The position numbers and the translations under genes are program-made. This document shows positions 2,853 through 27,342 of a stretch of DNA of 29,240 nt, one piece after another. The notes below the pieces were generated by a model. That model ran no database searches. It was not told the origin of the DNA and was given only the letters and a program-made list of their open reading frames with translations. The stretch lies in UHGV virus genome UHGV-0275034. The stretch is one strand, 5' to 3'. Position 1 is the stretch's first letter, and the number at the start of each line of letters is the position of its first letter. This DNA comes from a virus.

Positions 2853-3567
2853 GTTAATAAATGGCAATGCCATCAAAATGACAAGCATTGAAATCGCTGA
2901 GTTGGTGGGTAAGCGTCATGACAATGTGAAACGTACCATCGAAACGCTGGCTAAGAATGGTGTTATCCGGCTTCCTCAAATTGAGGATTGTGGAAGAATC
3001 AATGGGTTAGGCTTAAATCAAAGTTTTTGTGTGTATGCATTCGAAGGCGAACAAGGAAAGCGAGACAGTATTGTCGTTGTAGCCCAGTTGTCGCCGGAAT
3101 TCACCGCTCGTCTTGTTGACCGTTGGCGAGAGCTTGAAGAAACTGCGGTTAATATCCCCAAAACGCTACCAGAAGCGTTGCGCCTTGCTGCTGATCTTGC
3201 TGAGCAGAAAATGCAACTGGAAAACCAGCTCGCAATTGCCGCACCTAAAGTTGAGTTTGCCGATCGCGTTGGCGAGGCCAGCGGAATTTTGATTGGAAAC
3301 TATGCAAAGGTTGTTGGAATTGGTCCAAACAAACTGTTTGCGTGGATGCGCGATCACAAAATCCTTATTGCTTCAGGTTCCCGGCGCAATGTGCCAATGC
3401 AGGAATATATGGATCGCGGCTATTTCACAGTGAAAGAAACAGCGGTCAACACAAATCACGGAATACAGATATCGTTCACCACAAAAATCACCGGGCGTGG
3501 TCAACAGTGGCTGACCAGAAAGCTGCTCGATAACGGAATGCTGAAAGTAACAGGGGAGGCTGCTTAA
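2845..3567 (+). CDS. Rha-family phage regulatory protein with C-terminal KilA-C/ANT domain (antirepressor-like)
   Basis: N-terminal region has the Rha signature (TSIEIAELVGKRHDNV); C-terminal half resembles the ANT/KilA-C antirepressor domain. Confidence 0.65.
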   Translation: MNELINGNAIKMTSIEIAELVGKRHDNVKRTIETLAKNGVIRLPQIEDCGRINGLGLNQSFCVYAFEGEQGKRDSIVVVAQLSPEFTARLVDRWRELEETAVNIPKTLPEALRLAADLAEQKMQLENQLAIAAPKVEFADRVGEASGILIGNYAKVVGIGPNKLFAWMRDHKILIASGSRRNVPMQEYMDRGYFTVKETAVNTNHGIQISFTTKITGRGQQWLTRKLLDNGMLKVTGEAA

Positions 3568-22253: not shown

Positions 22254-22619
22254 ATGAAAAAAGTTAACATTGGAAACGTACCAAAGATGCTAGTACCGCT
22301 CTTTGAGAGCGGTACAATTGTGTTTTGTAGAGACTTTCCAGAATGGCAACGCCTGCATCAAAAACTTGGCGTTGACGTGCATGACTCGGACGCCAACGGA
22401 GCGTCTCATACAATGAGTAGCGAGAATGGTGTTTTGCATGTGATAGGCGTGTTCAATGGCAAACTATCTACTATTGCCCATGAGTGCGCTCACATGGCAT
22501 TCGATATCTGCTCAAGGGTCGGTGTTGATGTTGAACCAGGAAGAGCCAACGAGACTTACTGCTACTTAATGAGCAGGCTTGTTGAGTTCTGCGAGCGACA
22601 TATCAAAAAGCCGGAGTGA
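22254..22619 (+). CDS. Small protein (121 aa) carrying an HExxH motif (HECAH)
   Basis: ATG 22254 with AGGA upstream; divergent from the lipoprotein gene with only 34 bp between the two start codons; motif IAHECAHMAF suggests a zinc metallopeptidase-like fold. Confidence 0.55.
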   Translation: MKKVNIGNVPKMLVPLFESGTIVFCRDFPEWQRLHQKLGVDVHDSDANGASHTMSSENGVLHVIGVFNGKLSTIAHECAHMAFDICSRVGVDVEPGRANETYCYLMSRLVEFCERHIKKPE

Positions 22620-22902: not shown

Positions 22903-22926
22903 AACCCACCGTCAGGTGGGTTTTTT
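22903..22926. terminator. Bidirectional hairpin terminator overlapping the mnt stop codon
   Basis: Stem AACCCACC/GGTGGGTT with loop GTCA, flanked by AAAAATT on one side and TTTTTTG on the other. Confidence 0.6.
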
Positions 22927-23163
22927 GTACAAATCCTTCAGCGTATCAAACACCATCTTCTTAACAAGTTCGGACTGCTCATCAGCGATGCGTTCCGCAT
23001 CGTCTCGATAGCCTGAAATTTTGGATGGCTTTGATACAGCATCAGTAACTATCTGAACTAATTCTGAATTAAGAGAGCGGCCATTGGATTTGGCTCGCTG
23101 TTTTAGTTTTTCCTTTAATTCGTAAGGTAGCCGCAGATTAAATTGCGGGTCATCTCTTCCCAT
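22912..23163 (-). CDS. mnt: Mnt repressor (ribbon-helix-helix, immI region)
   Basis: 83-aa product that matches P22 Mnt as I recall it, especially the C-terminal GYRDDAERIADEQSELVKKMVFDTLKDLYKK. Confidence 0.85.
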   Translation of the reverse strand: MGRDDPQFNLRLPYELKEKLKQRAKSNGRSLNSELVQIVTDAVSKPSKISGYRDDAERIADEQSELVKKMVFDTLKDLYKKPT

Positions 23164-23309: not shown

Positions 23310-24746
23310 ATGACAGACATTACAGCCAATGTTGTAGTCAGCATGCCTTCGCAACTCTTCACTATGGCTCGTTCTTTTAAAGCCGTAGCTAATGGAAAGA
23401 TTTATATCGGTAAAATTGACACTGACCCAGTAAATCCTGAAAACCAGATTCAGGTTTATGTAGAGAACGAAGACGGCTCTCATGTTCCCGTTTCGCAACC
23501 AATCATCATTAACGCCGCTGGTTACCCTGTATATAACGGACAGATTGCCAAATTCGTAACTGAGCAAGGCCATTCTATGGCTGTTTATGATGCGTATGGT
23601 GCACAGCAGTTCAAATTCCCAAATGTGCTGAAGTATGACCCGGATCAGTTAAGAGTAGTTTTGACTGGACAGTCTGGTGATGGACTTAAGAATTTTTATG
23701 CTGGCTCAGGATGGACTGGTTCAGATGCAGCTGGTGACAATATTTATAACAATGAAACTATCATATATAAAAATGCTACACGACAGAGATTCTCCATACC
23801 AGAAACACCAATTCCAGATCCCATTATTTGGCTGGAAAAAATTAGTTCTGCAACTAGGGATGACGGCATCAAACGATGGGATCAGGGGGTAATTTATAAC
23901 TCTTTGCGCAAGGTGTCAGGAAGTGCATATACATGCACAACTACAAGTGTTGCTAAGCATGAGGGAGGGAATGGGCATTCAATTGGTCACCACATGCGTG
24001 GAGAATCAAGAAATCCGCAAGCCGAAACATGGGGGGGGTGGTCATATGGTGCAGTATTAGGAGATGCAGTGCAGAATGGAGCGATTAGCACTATTGCACA
24101 TGAATTTAATCTGAATAATCGAGGTCCCGATAAAGGATGGATGGAGAATGCACTGCAAGGATCTGTAAGAGGGTTGGTATGTGTAACTCAGGATAAAAGC
24201 AATCCAGTAACACAGATGATTACCATCGGAAGAGGGAGTGAAGCTCCAAATGGTTATATCTGGACAGGAATGTTGTTTAGAGGTAATTCTATTTCCACTC
24301 CAACAGAGGAACTAACCGAGGTAGGTAATGGCGAATACATCAGACTTGAGGGATCTCTATCATCTGGAGCTGCAAACGGCATTAGATTTAGAACAAATTA
24401 TTTTAGGAGTGGAATTTCATTTTCTGAAGCTAGATTTTCAAACAACTGCGCAATTTTGATGGGCGACAATCAACGAATTACGGTAGGAACGGGCCCGGCA
24501 AATACAACACATTTGAGTTTCAACAGGGCTGAGAACTGGGCTAACTTCAACAACTTAAGAATACGACTTAATGGCAATCAAGTTATTTCAGAGAGGAGGA
24601 CGGGATGGGGATCGCCAACCGGCACCGTATCCCGAGCAGCATTTAACTCTGGAACAATAACTCACGAAGATTTAGCAAAGGTAGTTGCAGCATTAATTCA
24701 GGACTTACATGCTTCAACCGGGCATGGATTAATTGGTTTAACTTAA
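23310..24746 (+). CDS. Tailspike / receptor-binding protein (P22 gp9-like N-terminal head-binding domain, divergent short distal domain)
   Basis: First roughly 115 aa closely parallel the P22 gp9 N-terminus ([11 protein letters not shown] ... [13 protein letters not shown][13 protein letters not shown] ... LKYDPDQ); the remainder is unrelated and AT-richer; total 478 aa. Confidence 0.8.
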
Positions 24747-24758
24747 CAGGACAATAAA

Positions 24759-24944
24759 ATGGATAAGCAAACTATTCAAAATATCATGCAGTTTATGCTT
24801 CGCGTAAATCTTAGCGGTCATGAAGTTCCTGCTTTTAATTCTTCAATGAATGCATTACAGGCTGAATTAGATCGCGAAAATGACCAGCCACTCCAGCGAG
24901 TACTAAATGCTGCTCACAATGAACCTGTTACGGAGAATGATTAA
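24759..24944 (+). CDS. Small hypothetical protein (61 aa) downstream of tailspike
   Basis: ORF with a weak RBS, tightly linked to the next small gene. Confidence 0.4.
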   Translation: MDKQTIQNIMQFMLRVNLSGHEVPAFNSSMNALQAELDRENDQPLQRVLNAAHNEPVTEND

Positions 24945-24945
24945 A

Positions 24946-25152
24946 ATGAAAACAGAAAGCGGTGCTTTCAAATTTGACGGTGGAGAGGTTAAAGGAATTA
25001 ACAGCATTGCCATTATTGAGGTGCGCGGTAACGGGTGGGGCGCTGGTTTTTATTTTAAGCCAAATACTGCCGTTAAAGTCGATGGTAATAAGCCTGATCT
25101 GAACGAGTTTCGTGATTCCTGCGCATTGTCGGTAATGACTCCAACTTACTGA
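24946..25152 (+). CDS. Small hypothetical protein (68 aa) downstream of tailspike
   Basis: ATG 24946 with GGAGA 9 nt upstream; begins 2 nt after the stop of the preceding small ORF. Confidence 0.45.
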
Positions 25153-25307: not shown

Positions 25308-25433
25308 ATGGGAAGGGCATTAATCACGGATGATGGTGAAGCGATCGAAGTGGAGGCGGCGGAAGAGGTGGAGGTGATGTGGCGTGTTACGTACTTCATC
25401 AACAGCGCGCTGCAGGATGGCGTGGTGGTGTGA
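25308..25433 (+). pseudogene. Coding-like fragment resembling the 3' end of a protein gene (41 codons from an internal ATG)
   Basis: Open frame ending ...VMWRVTYFINSALQDGVVV*, with no plausible full-length gene upstream (in-frame stop at 25209); a degenerate second copy lies at 25532..25678. Confidence 0.25.
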
Positions 25434-25688
25434 TGGGTGGCATTACCCCACCTTTTCATCAATCCAGTCCGCCCACCACTGCAGCATGTCTCTGCATTTA
25501 TCGTAGTTGATGCATCACTATCACCCTGTAATGGCTTATTACTGGTTTGCATACAGGTAGGCATGAACAGATACCTACACATGAAGATGGAACTAGTCCG
25601 GATGCGATATTTTTGGTGATCACGTACATCATCAACGAAGCGCGTTATGTTGAGTTTTATGACTGCCAAGTAATGTGAAAATTGCGAT

Positions 25689-25712
25689 GCGTACCAAATT
25701 GTGTACCAAATT
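25689..25712. repeat. Tandem arm-type repeats GCGTACCAAATT / GTGTACCAAATT (putative integrase arm sites)
   Basis: Two adjacent 12-bp copies; three more related copies lie at 25939..25985, just upstream of int. Confidence 0.6.
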
Positions 25713-25938
25713 AAAATCATAAACCATGAAACCCTTACTCATGGCTGTTCTCAGGCTGGGTGCGTGTAATCGTGAAAGAGGAAGGTAGGTTGTTTATCTG
25801 TGTCTGTCATTGTCTAGCATTGTCCACTGTAGTTAATTAACTGTCTGTTATAACTCGAAAAACAACCATTTTTTCACCTGAGTATGTCTACGAACGTCAA
25901 ATATAGTTGTTTACTGTGCGCTGTTGTCCATGTGATAT

Positions 25939-25985
25939 TGTGTACCAGATGTGTACCAAACTATTATTTCTGAGCGTACCAAATA
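25939..25985. repeat. Three arm-type repeats (TGTGTACCAGA, TGTGTACCAAA, GCGTACCAAAT) immediately upstream of int
   Basis: Same GTACCAaA core as the copies at 25689..25712; together they bracket about 230 bp. Confidence 0.6.
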
Positions 25986-25991
25986 TTATTT

Positions 25992-27170
25992 ATGGCTATA
26001 AGCGACACAAAACTGCGTACTATTTATGGTAAACCATATTCGGGCCCACAAGAAGTGGCTGATGCCGATGGCCTCAGCGTACGAATTTCACCGAAGGGGG
26101 TCATCCAGTTCCAGTACCGCTATCGCTGGCATGGCAAGCCTAATCGACTTGGGCTTGGTCGATACCCATCCCTGTCTTTGAAGGATGCCAGACAGATCAC
26201 TGCTGACTTGCGAAAGCTCTATTTCTCAGGAACGGATCCACGCACCTATTTTGAAGAGAAGGTGGAGAACTCCATGACGGTCGCCCAGTGTCTCGACTAC
26301 TGGTTCGACAACTACGTCTCTACAACTCTCAGAGAAAAGACCCAGGCACTTTACCGATCAACGGTTATGAAGCGCATGCATGACGCCTTTCCTAATCGTC
26401 CGGCATCTTCTATCACGGTTAAGCAATGGGTTGACCTGCTTACCGAAGAAGAAAGAGATAATCCACGCCGAGCAAGGCAGGTGCTAAGTCAACTAAGATC
26501 AGCAATAAGTTGGTGCATGCGGCGTCAGTTGATAGATAGTTGCGCAATTATGAGCATCCAACCAAGGGACTTCGGCTCCCGCGCTGAGGTAGGGGATCGG
26601 GTACTGTCGTATCACGAACTGGCTAAGATTTGGCTTGCTATTGAAAGAAGCCGTGCGTCTACGTCAAATAAGCTCCTTCATCAGATGCTTATGCTGTGGG
26701 GGGCGAGGCTCTCAGAGCTTAGGCTGGCAACAAAGACAGAATTTGACCTGCTGGACAACGTATGGACCGTACCGAAAGAGCATAGCAAGATGGGTAATGT
26801 TATCCGCCGTCCAATCTTCGAACAAATTAAGCCTTTTCTCGAAAAAGCCATGACAACGTACAATGATGTTCTTTTCCCTGGAGAAGACATAAACAAACCG
26901 ATCAGCATCGCTGCAGCCAACCGATTCGTAAATAGAATAAGGGGAGGGATGGATCTGGGTTACTGGCGAACACATGATTTCAGAAGAACGCTTGTTACAC
27001 GTCTGTCCGAGATGAATGTCGAGCCTCATGTTACTGAGCGAATGCTCGGTCATGAACTTGGCGGGATAATGTCAGTATACAATAAACACGACTGGATAGA
27101 GGCTCAGCGCAAAGCGTATGAGCTTCACGCTGATAAATTGTTCTGGCACATCAGGAGCATTTCTGATTAA
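25992..27170 (+). CDS. int: Tyrosine site-specific integrase (P4-type)
   Basis: 392-aa product with catalytic-domain signatures (RLSELRL, HDFRRT, LGHELGG ... SVYNKH); lies adjacent to the arm-type repeats. Confidence 0.9.
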   Translation: MAISDTKLRTIYGKPYSGPQEVADADGLSVRISPKGVIQFQYRYRWHGKPNRLGLGRYPSLSLKDARQITADLRKLYFSGTDPRTYFEEKVENSMTVAQCLDYWFDNYVSTTLREKTQALYRSTVMKRMHDAFPNRPASSITVKQWVDLLTEEERDNPRRARQVLSQLRSAISWCMRRQLIDSCAIMSIQPRDFGSRAEVGDRVLSYHELAKIWLAIERSRASTSNKLLHQMLMLWGARLSELRLATKTEFDLLDNVWTVPKEHSKMGNVIRRPIFEQIKPFLEKAMTTYNDVLFPGEDINKPISIAAANRFVNRIRGGMDLGYWRTHDFRRTLVTRLSEMNVEPHVTERMLGHELGGIMSVYNKHDWIEAQRKAYELHADKLFWHIRSISD

Positions 27171-27342
27171 CGCCACCGTTAAGAATCCACCCTTCAACAG
27201 CTTCACGAAGGTATGATTTGGGGTGGGTTCTGACTGGCTTCGGAAATCCGTGTCGTTTGGTATAGTTCCAGATTGTCTGACGTGATGAAACACCGAGCTT
27301 GTTCATCACTTCTTTCTCAGGAATCAGGCTGGTATCGGTCAT
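27151..27342 (-). CDS. AlpA-family excisionase / DNA-binding protein
   Basis: 63-aa product with the AlpA-like HTH pattern (LGVSSRQTIWNYTKRHGFPKPV); GGAGA 6 nt upstream; 3' end overlaps the int 3' end by 20 bp, convergently. Confidence 0.7.
   Translation of the reverse strand: MTDTSLIPEKEVMNKLGVSSRQTIWNYTKRHGFPKPVRTHPKSYLREAVEGWILNGGVNQKCS

Follow-up and report, generated by a model that had tools for sequence, protein, structure and literature searches.

Putative integrase arm-type repeats around the sbcB-specific core of a probable type 2851 attP in phage genome UHGV-0275034

In phage lambda, the phage attachment site, attP, carries the arm-type sites P1 and P2 on one side of its core and P′1, P′2 and P′3 on the other. 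Phage P4 inserts at the 3′ end of a tRNA-Leu gene, and the attP of phages 21 and e14, which integrate in icd, brings a substitute end of the target gene, so that the lysogen keeps an open reading frame (ORF). The arrangement of arm and core sites recognized by heterobivalent integrases of the lambda type has been described in general terms (PMC2951348). The type 2851 phages, namely 2851, Stx2-1717, Sf101, mEp234, HK544, and HK140, have their core 215–227 base pairs (bp) upstream of the integrase gene, int, and use the 5′ end of sbcB as the integration target. For Sf101, a 13-bp attP, 5′-CGTAATCGTGAAA-3′, has been reported together with the sequence of an attL at the sbcB 5′ end, and phage 2851 is cited there for integration into sbcB (PMC4159516). 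Insertion at this gene has been demonstrated for both phages. The subject here is the viral genome UHGV-0275034, a stretch of 29,240 bp that was analyzed as a whole (the window, to which all positions refer). Positions 25689–25991, directly upstream of int, very probably constitute an intact attP of the type 2851 site-specific recombination module, in which five direct repeats would act as the arm sites of the integrase.

The crossover core, GTAATCGTGAAA, occupies positions 25766–25777 (no strand assigned) and is identical in attP, attB, attL, and attR in a four-way alignment. The window provides attP, with the order P-core-P′, and sbcB of strain K-12 provides attB, with the order B-core-B′; attL (B-core-P′) is that of strain DETEC-P61 and that of phage 1717, and attR (P-core-B′) is that of strain c1-17, the P arm of which is the same as that of the window over the 45 bp compared. 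Integration is targeted to sbcB of the host, at its codons F-H-D-Y. In GenBank, the entries for mEp234 and HK544 contain a 13-bp misc_feature, "attP; prophage attachment site (type 2851)", that aligns to positions 25765–25777 of the window, and the record of integrated phage 1717 labels the same 13 bp "duplication due to insertion". Twelve of the 13 bases match: base 25765 is T in the window and C in attB, in the published 13-bp core, and in most relatives, and thus the exact identity of attP and attB spans 12 bp. The T variant is also found at the attR of Escherichia coli c1-17 and is therefore integration-competent. An earlier interpretation made from the letters alone (the sequence-only reading) had proposed an attP with repeats around a core at this place, and the position of the core between the repeat clusters, the four-way alignment, and the GenBank annotation at the same spot all bear it out.

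Host genomes give the same boundary. When positions 25400–26100 were compared by megablast with 5,426 complete E. coli genomes, 726 of them (about 13%) matched, none with the query in one piece at high coverage. The right-hand pieces begin at query position 367, which is position 25766 of the window, and abut sbcB; the left-hand pieces end at 25794 and abut dacD. In a sample of 60 of the 839 matches, evenly spaced along the E. coli ranking, about 45 start exactly at 25766 next to sbcB. The search for a core shared with attB that the sequence-only reading had suggested thus recovers the 12-bp core in sbcB. Junctions of related prophages at another place would have spoken against the attP assignment, which stands, as hundreds of prophage junctions in E. 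coli have their start precisely at 25766. That reading had also left a choice between an intact attP and a core other than a tRNA 3′ end, and both hold: the two arms are uninterrupted in the window, which is therefore a phage or excised form, and the target consists of sbcB codons. As that reading had noted, the window lacks a tRNA gene; a tRNA/tmRNA scan of its whole length detected none, and hence no attachment site of the tRNA type is present.

Two further observations concern the attP itself. An uninterrupted chromosomal copy with the core and all five repeats is seen in STEC799 (locus L007, positions 3055–3450) and likewise in O157:H7 MB9-1 and Show KS 470-1. The L007 copy is about 95% identical to the window over the 396 nucleotides aligned, or 91% over a longer BLAST match, and is flanked by a prophage end (tail fibre, nleG7 effector, and S24 pseudogene) on one side and an int gene on the other. 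The possibility that such a copy contradicts the attP assignment was rejected, as its flanks fit a tandem junction between prophages; most likely, the copies in Shiga toxin-producing E. coli (STEC) and O157 strains are the junction of two tandem prophages at sbcB. Between P2 and the core, positions 25722–25746 contain an inverted repeat, AACCATGA...TCATGGCT, which scores as terminator-like on the minus strand (nine pairs, three of them G-C, and a weak T tail). Its CATGA/TCATG palindrome is kept in mEp234 and STEC799 despite substitutions. In lysogens, this repeat would come to lie at attR, a short way downstream of the native promoter and first codons of sbcB, which are orphaned there; it could block the orphan sbcB transcript from the prophage or be a protein-binding site.

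The five repeats all lie on the plus strand and were located by repeat search and pattern scan. The tandem pair is composed of P1 (GCGTACCAAAT, 25689–25699) and P2 (GTGTACCAAAT, 25701–25711), which are 12 bp apart from start to start. The triple is composed of P′1 (GTGTACCAGAT, 25940–25950), P′2 (GTGTACCAAAC, 25951–25961), 11 bp from P′1, and P′3 (GCGTACCAAAT, 25974–25984), 23 bp from P′2 and ending 7 nucleotides before the int ATG. The pair lies 54 bp to the left of the core and the triple 162 bp to its right, and the names were assigned on the basis of a geometry that matches that of P4 and a 2 + 3 split as in lambda. The 11-mer pattern G[CT]GTACCA[AG]A[CT] has five copies in the window, all of them in this region, and none on the minus strand, with 0.058 copies expected per strand from base composition over the whole window and 0.0006 per 300 bp. 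When one mismatch was allowed, a looser 8-mer showed no enrichment over the whole window (16 copies, as compared with 19 expected); what stands out is thus that near-exact copies cluster. A single further exact GTACCAAA exists in the window, at 22278–22285; it is isolated, lacks the flanking G[CT] and A[CT] context, and is probably a chance occurrence.

The description given by the sequence-only reading agrees with these measurements. Its tandem pair and three further copies of a GTACCAaA-core motif are found at 25689, 25701, 25940, 25951, and 25974, and its interval of about 230 bp between the clusters measures 228 bp (25712–25939). The last copy, placed there 6 bp before the int start, is 7 nucleotides away when it ends at 25984 and 6 when drawn to 25985. 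The interval is AT-rich, as described, in a moderate degree (38.6% G+C as compared with 47.2% for the window), and the TGTC-rich short repeats mentioned there form the densest TGTC run of the window, with five copies in the 83 bp from 25778 (highest of any 83-bp span; mean 0.23).

The gene that follows, int (25992–27170, plus strand), encodes a tyrosine integrase with an N-terminal arm-type DNA-binding domain. Its ORF matches the Pfam families Arm-DNA-bind_3 (PF13356, E 8e-18) and Phage_integrase (PF00589, E 1e-16); the N-terminal domain matches that of a CP4-like integrase (PDB 3jtz, E 1.7e-11), and the catalytic body of the protein matches lambda Int (PDB 5j0n, E 2.6e-7). The protein is 99.5–100% identical over 392 amino acids to the 2851-type integrases of Stx phages and EC.P3 (tblastn). 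As for lambda-type integrases, a catalytic domain is thus combined with a separate N-terminal arm-binding domain, and repeats that are unrelated to the core in sequence are present on both sides of it.

Conservation among homologues supports the assignment of the repeats. The integrase homologues compared were taken from phage records (SEN34, 60% identity; Stx2a_F723, 57%; Kp4880-2, 55%) and from IMG/VR (80 loci, 59–100% identity). Relative to the int start, GTAC is found at -50, -39, and -16 (±1) in all non-redundant loci in which the upstream DNA is long enough (about 20 loci, 55–100% integrase identity). The intact attPs, those of the window, L039 (73%), L064 (61%), and SEN34 (60%), additionally have GTAC at -301 and -289, and P1, at -303 from the int ATG, keeps its position in intact attPs whose integrases are 60–73% identical (L039, L064, and L009). 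The DNA between the copies diverges (for example, ctattatttctgag, tcctgaaaccac, and aataccaaagtgat), and even the integration target differs. The motif itself drifts from GTACCAAA to GTACAnAA, and the spacings are fixed despite this drift, at 12 bp in the P pair and at 11 and 23–24 bp among the P′ copies. Judged from these alignments, the conserved GTAC spacing is best read as the phylogenetic footprint of five binding sites. The N-terminal domain is the best-conserved part of the integrase across these homologues, which fits the conserved GTAC core; on this ground, and by analogy with P4, KplE1, and lambda, the repeats are putative binding sites of this domain.

On the other side of the core, the P′ arm carries a replacement for the 5′ end of the target gene. 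In the orientation of the window sbcB runs leftwards, and minus-strand positions 25810–25766 read ATG ACA GAC ACA GAT AAA CAA CCT ACC TTC CTC TTT CAC GAT TAC, with the ATG at 25810–25808, encoding MTDTDKQPTFLFHDY in place of the native N terminus MMNDGKQQSTFLFHDY. At attL, this phage segment fuses in frame to host sbcB, and RefSeq accordingly annotates an intact coding sequence for exodeoxyribonuclease I (ExoI), the product of sbcB, across attL, the first 45 nucleotides of which are phage DNA. The TGTC-rich stretch thus in part encodes the replacement sbcB 5′ end, which leaves the sbcB reading frame of lysogens intact. All 12 homologous loci whose cores are of the sbcB type, many of which are attL junctions in sbcB of other enterobacteria, show an ATG, GTG, or TTG exactly 12 codons ahead of HDY despite heavy nucleotide divergence; the start codon is usually located right after a stop codon and followed by Q(P/N/S/L)TF(L/Y)(F/I). 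The retention of a start and N-terminal codons in all of these loci points to selection for the rebuilt reading frame. Insertion would thus appear to swap the sbcB promoter and first 12 codons for phage-borne ones rather than truncate the gene, an exchange that, judging from these alignments, is conserved across divergent Enterobacteriaceae phages. The rebuilt sbcB may be expressed in lysogens.

More distant relatives of the integrase use other targets. The intact attP of L064 and the attL sites of L069, L083, and L091, with integrases about 61% identical to that of the window, have the same arm-repeat geometry around a GTAATC core. Their target is the 5′ end of a gene for a PfpI/DJ-1-like protein (MQSPHLAEDYETMVPFQALQMIGH...), which again encodes D-Y-E-T at the crossover, and the phage again brings a new start and N-terminal codons. 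In L010 (Stx2a_F723, integrase 57% identical), nucleotides 1–24, TTATATCCATTTAACTAAGAGGAC, are the reverse complement of the first 24 nucleotides of the argW tRNA gene (compare L092, 2210–2233), and three GTAC repeats are kept before int. In this relative, the crossover thus seems to take place at the 5′ end of argW, with replacement of the DNA upstream of the gene. The same integrase clade appears to replace 5′ ends at the PfpI/DJ-1-like gene and argW as it does at sbcB.

A candidate excisionase, or recombination directionality factor (RDF), is encoded at 27151–27342 on the minus strand, convergent with int and overlapping its 3′ end. It is a 63-residue protein with an AlpA-like helix-turn-helix that matches PHROG 66, "excisionase and transcriptional regulator" (E 3.7e-8). 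The gene adjoins int in 167 of 167 matching phage records, and relatives annotate the protein as AlpA family or excisionase; a comparison with NCBIfam gave no match. Candidate sites for this protein are GTYCR-like pentamers that lie in two plus-strand blocks between the core and P′1. Block 1 (25792–25836) contains GTTTA at 25792, GTCTG at 25802, GTCTA at 25812, and GTCCA at 25822, in a 10-bp register, and corresponds to the TGTC-rich repeats of the sequence-only reading. Block 2 (25886–25930) contains GTCTA at 25886, GTCAA at 25896, GTTTA at 25909, and GTCCA at 25926, and reaches the region of the candidate int promoter. In 16 homologous loci, the stretch from the replacement start codon to P′1 contains 62 copies of GT[CT]C[AG] on the plus strand versus 4 on the minus strand, and a shuffle control for this count gave a mean of 6.3 and a maximum of 15. 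In the homologues, the pentamers are phased by 10 bp, at -170/-160 and at -105/-95/-85/-75/-65, and the GTCCA at 25926 is nearly invariant. A comparable array is known from KplE1 attL, where five TorI sites (GTTCG, GTCCG, or GATCG) lie in two blocks, between the core and the P′ sites, and reach into the -35 element of the intS promoter (PMC2951348). By analogy, the pentamers can be proposed with moderate confidence as binding sites of the 63-residue candidate excisionase. Between the two blocks, at 25832–25841, stands a perfect 10-bp palindrome, GTTAATTAAC, of which distant homologues keep only TTAAC; it may be part of a site for a DNA-bending protein.

A candidate int promoter is located at 25910–25939 on the plus strand, directly before P′1. 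It consists of a -35 element, TTTACT (25910–25915), an 18-bp spacer, into which the GTCCA at 25926 falls, and an extended -10 element, TGt + GATATT (25934–25939), with a predicted start near 25946, inside P′1. Ten of 13 divergent homologues have a corresponding element, composed of TTGATG or TTGCCG, 17 bp, and TGn-AATATT, whose end is at -53/-52, and CATGnnATATTG, the block just before P′1, is among the most conserved of the region. With the start inside P′1, Int bound at P′1–P′3 would occlude it. No recognizable Shine-Dalgarno sequence precedes the int ATG (AAATATTATTTATG; AAATATTATTT in 25985–25994), and, as P′3 ends 7 nucleotides before this ATG, Int at P′3 might influence the initiation of translation as well. 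In KplE1, both Int and the RDF have been demonstrated to repress int, and the same has been reported for P4 (PMC2951348); by comparison, the candidate promoter abutting P′1 suggests autoregulation of int.

These elements can be combined into a proposed mechanism. The catalytic and core-binding domains of the integrase would exchange strands within the 12-bp core shared with the F-H-D-Y codons of sbcB, and the Arm-DNA-bind_3 domain would bind the five direct repeats and so link the arms with the core in an intasome, as occurs in lambda and P4. The minus strand of the long P′ arm would provide a new start codon and 12 N-terminal codons, such that the lysogen keeps a full-length sbcB frame at attL. 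The 10-bp-phased GTYCR array would provide sites for the AlpA-like excisionase, as the TorI sites do in KplE1. The int promoter would most likely lie directly upstream of P′1, with its -35 element at 25910 and its -10 element at 25934, and int would be repressed by Int at P′1–P′3 and by excisionase at the neighbouring pentamers, as described for KplE1 and P4.

Several points weigh against parts of this account. No binding, footprint, or recombination assay on these repeats was found in the accessible literature, which does not include the phage 2851 paper, and arm sites are nowhere mentioned in the Sf101 paper (PMC4159516). A search for the consensus of integration host factor (IHF), WATCAANNNNTTR, with up to one mismatch gave a single match in the region, at 25954, with one mismatch and inside P′2, and matches at chance frequency window-wide. 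AT-rich spacers are present between the repeats and the core, and the Int of Phi24B has been reported to work without IHF (PMC7581858), so that a need for this factor is not universal. The standard sigma-70 scan of 25400–26100 returned no promoters, and the int promoter, found by a lenient scan with matches at only 8 of 12 positions, is consequently tentative; on the minus strand, no promoter with a conserved position was detected that could serve the rebuilt sbcB. The 63-residue protein scores 17.8 bits with Pfam AlpA, under the 21-bit cut-off, and has no detectable similarity to TorI (BLASTP E 1.1). For the pentamers, only two exact GT[CT]C[AG] are present in the window between 25811 and 25939, the rest being degenerate (GTCTA, GTCAA, and GTTTA), those at 25792 and 25802 fall within the codons that replace those of sbcB and may be explained by coding alone, and the homologous loci are phylogenetically related, so that the enrichment counts are not independent.

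The points on the pentamers are those on which the best-surviving alternative draws, namely that the TGTC/GTYCR repeats are not protein sites at all and are a by-product of the replacement codons, the AT-rich spacer, and shared ancestry, with the excisionase binding elsewhere, for example on the P arm like lambda Xis. The two phased pentamers within the codons, the pair of exact copies in the non-coding part of the window, and the inflation of the enrichment by related homologues all fit such an origin, and the inverted repeat at 25722–25746 offers an alternative candidate site on the P arm. The 62 to 4 strand asymmetry and the 10-bp phasing at identical offsets in lineages with unalignable intervening sequence argue against it, as does KplE1 attL, the closest characterized analogue, which has the same pentamer type at the same relative place. 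This explanation is accordingly judged possible and rather unlikely.

The attP assignment could also be right with the roles of the two repeat families changed, the GTACCAAA repeats being bound by the AlpA-like excisionase or another regulator and the GTYCR pentamers or other sequences being the true arm sites. The repeats do overlap the probable int promoter, a place suited to a dedicated regulator, and the RDF sites of KplE1 are also short tandem direct repeats. Such an exchange is nonetheless very unlikely, as the GTAC repeats flank the core on both sides (2 + 3), like the lambda Int sites and, with the same spacing, the P4 arm repeats, whereas the GTYCR pentamers occupy one arm only, between the core and the arm sites, like TorI sites. 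In addition, the GTAC core is conserved along with the Int N-terminal domain at 55–100% identity, and P4 Int and IntS, at 22–25% identity, use unrelated motifs.

Even less can be said for the view that the five repeats are mainly operators of int, of which the upstream two form a remote looping operator that recombination does not need. Three copies do follow the candidate -10 element directly, at no more than 52 bp from the int start, and in KplE1 and P4 integrases are documented to regulate their own genes through P′ sites (PMC2951348). In these documented cases, however, the same sites serve both recombination and autoregulation, so that an operator function complements the arm-site assignment instead of competing with it. 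The distal pair is at a fixed 54 bp from the core and not from the promoter, as in P4, and in lysogens it ends up at attR, 30–60 kb from int; a purely regulatory role is thus highly improbable. Short motifs do recur in AT-rich DNA, but with 0.06 copies expected per strand, five within 300 bp on one strand, and positions kept down to 55% integrase identity, the chance that the cluster is a functionless or low-complexity feature is negligible.

One further reading concerns what the P′ arm means for the host. The arm may be read as a "promoter plus first 12 codons" cassette that takes over host sbcB on lysogeny and lets the phage control the level or the N terminus of ExoI, because the DNA that comes to lie upstream contains candidate Int and excisionase sites. 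The cassette could then tune host recombination or SbcB-sensing defence systems, instead of being a neutral repair of the insertion site. This extension is speculative and considered improbable. A takeover of the sbcB 5′ end is not described in the searchable literature, where sbcB is usually "disrupted" or "occupied". The conserved swap of the sbcB promoter and first 12 codons is the only thread with some novelty and matters only if ExoI expression changes in lysogens, in which case recombination phenotypes and defence systems that monitor SbcB could be affected.

The site type, the core, and the sbcB target are already known, being both published and annotated. The GenBank records of type 2851 phages and the Sf101 paper mark only the core; the records examined give no annotation of arm repeats, pentamers, or replacement codons for sbcB, and the accessible papers do not discuss them. 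These are details of a known kind of element and not a new kind. For annotation, the phage/host boundary is fixed at 25766–25777 and the window can be treated as a free-phage or excised form. The resulting map of the module, with five putative arm sites, core, candidate excisionase sites, and candidate int promoter, applies to the vehicle that carries Stx2c phages and O-antigen-modifying phages into sbcB.

The remainder of the window resembles a different group of phages. Its first 25 kb match HK620, Sf6, and further podoviruses of the P22-like kind in both late and early genes. In the DNA just upstream of the att module, Pfam identifies the injectosome translocase of P22, Mnt/Arc, and a head-binding domain of a tailspike. 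On these matches, the window is best classified as a P22/HK620/Sf6-like E. coli/Shigella phage genome in which the int-att segment is a separate mosaic module. Rightwards of 25546–25615, this module is 97–99% identical to Sf101, mEp234, HK140, HK544, EC.P3, and the Stx phages 2851 and 1717; left of about 25546–25615, the flanking genes differ from those of the sbcB-integrating relatives, which marks a mosaic junction. The left edge of the conserved att-int module is a frameshifted remnant of a humD/umuD′-like gene (S24 peptidase) at 25494–25677 on the plus strand, the terminal TGA of which is 12 bp before P1. The intact UmuD-like protein of HK140 matches this remnant in two frames, with 62% and 40% identity (tblastn), and RefSeq lists its counterpart in E. 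coli prophages as a pseudogene or as "HumD family translesion DNA polymerase". A minus-strand ORF over P1/P2 (25259–25720, 153 amino acids) has no Pfam match, is antisense to the remnant, and was treated as spurious. Farther to the left, a P22-type Mnt repressor gene with Arc and Mnt domains is found at 22912–23163 (minus strand), followed by a tailspike gene at 23310–24746 (plus strand) that has the conserved head-binding domain and encodes only 478 amino acids. Several ORFs at 24759–25152, between the tailspike gene and attP, have no Pfam match.

Structural comparison with the described systems shows a mixture of shared and distinct features. As in lambda, a heterobivalent tyrosine integrase is combined with five arm-type sites split 2 + 3 around a short core. 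The differences from lambda are that the arm lengths are reversed relative to int, that int is transcribed away from attP by its own candidate promoter and not by PL/PI, that no IHF consensus sites were detected here, that the RDF is AlpA-like and not Xis-like, and that the N-terminal domain belongs to a different Pfam family. In phage 21 and e14, the 3′ end of the target gene is replaced; here, it is the 5′ end, comprising the start codon, 12 codons, and necessarily the promoter region.

The organization of P4 is closer. P4 likewise has an Arm-DNA-bind_3 integrase and an attP immediately upstream of an int that is divergently placed. In the annotated "attP arm sequence repeats" of P4 (NC_001609), the far-side pair is spaced by 12 bp, as in the window, and lies 53 bp from the core (54 bp here). 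The core is 20 bp long in P4 and 12 bp here, the distance from the core to the int-side pair is 112 bp versus 162 bp, and the distance from this pair to the third copy is 15 bp versus 12 bp. The third copy of P4 is inverted and lies over the int start, whereas that of the window is direct and ends 7 nucleotides before the ATG. The P4 integrase is only 25% identical to that of the window, its repeat motif is GGGGGCA rather than GTACCAAA, and in place of a tRNA 3′ end, the core of the window is in codons F-H-D-Y of sbcB. In P4, both Int and the RDF Vis repress int, and Vis is reported to act on the mRNA (as cited in PMC2951348).

In function, the most similar system is IntS-TorI of KplE1 (CPS-53) and HK620, the latter being also the phage that the structural genes of the window resemble. 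The int promoter of KplE1 is inside the P′ arm in attL and is overlapped by P′ arm-type sites (PMC2951348), and a similar layout is proposed here. KplE1 has GTTCG-type pentamers in two blocks; in the family of the window, this pattern is clear, and the array in the window itself is degenerate. IntS is 22% identical to the integrase of the window, and the arm motif of KplE1 contains TAAA, not GTAC. The target of KplE1 is the 3′ end of argW, in contrast to the protein-coding 5′ end used here, and torI is at the far end of the prophage, whereas the RDF gene of the window overlaps the int 3′ end and its 63-residue product does not fall in the TorI family. The attP of the window is thus P4-like in organization and functionally most like IntS-TorI of KplE1/HK620, and it is a member of neither type, because the integrases are only 22–25% identical, the arm motifs differ, the RDF is not TorI-like, and the target is a protein-coding 5′ end. 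Integrase identity, the core, its offset from int, and the sbcB junctions place it instead among the type 2851 phages, in which the same core and target are used and all five repeats are present too.

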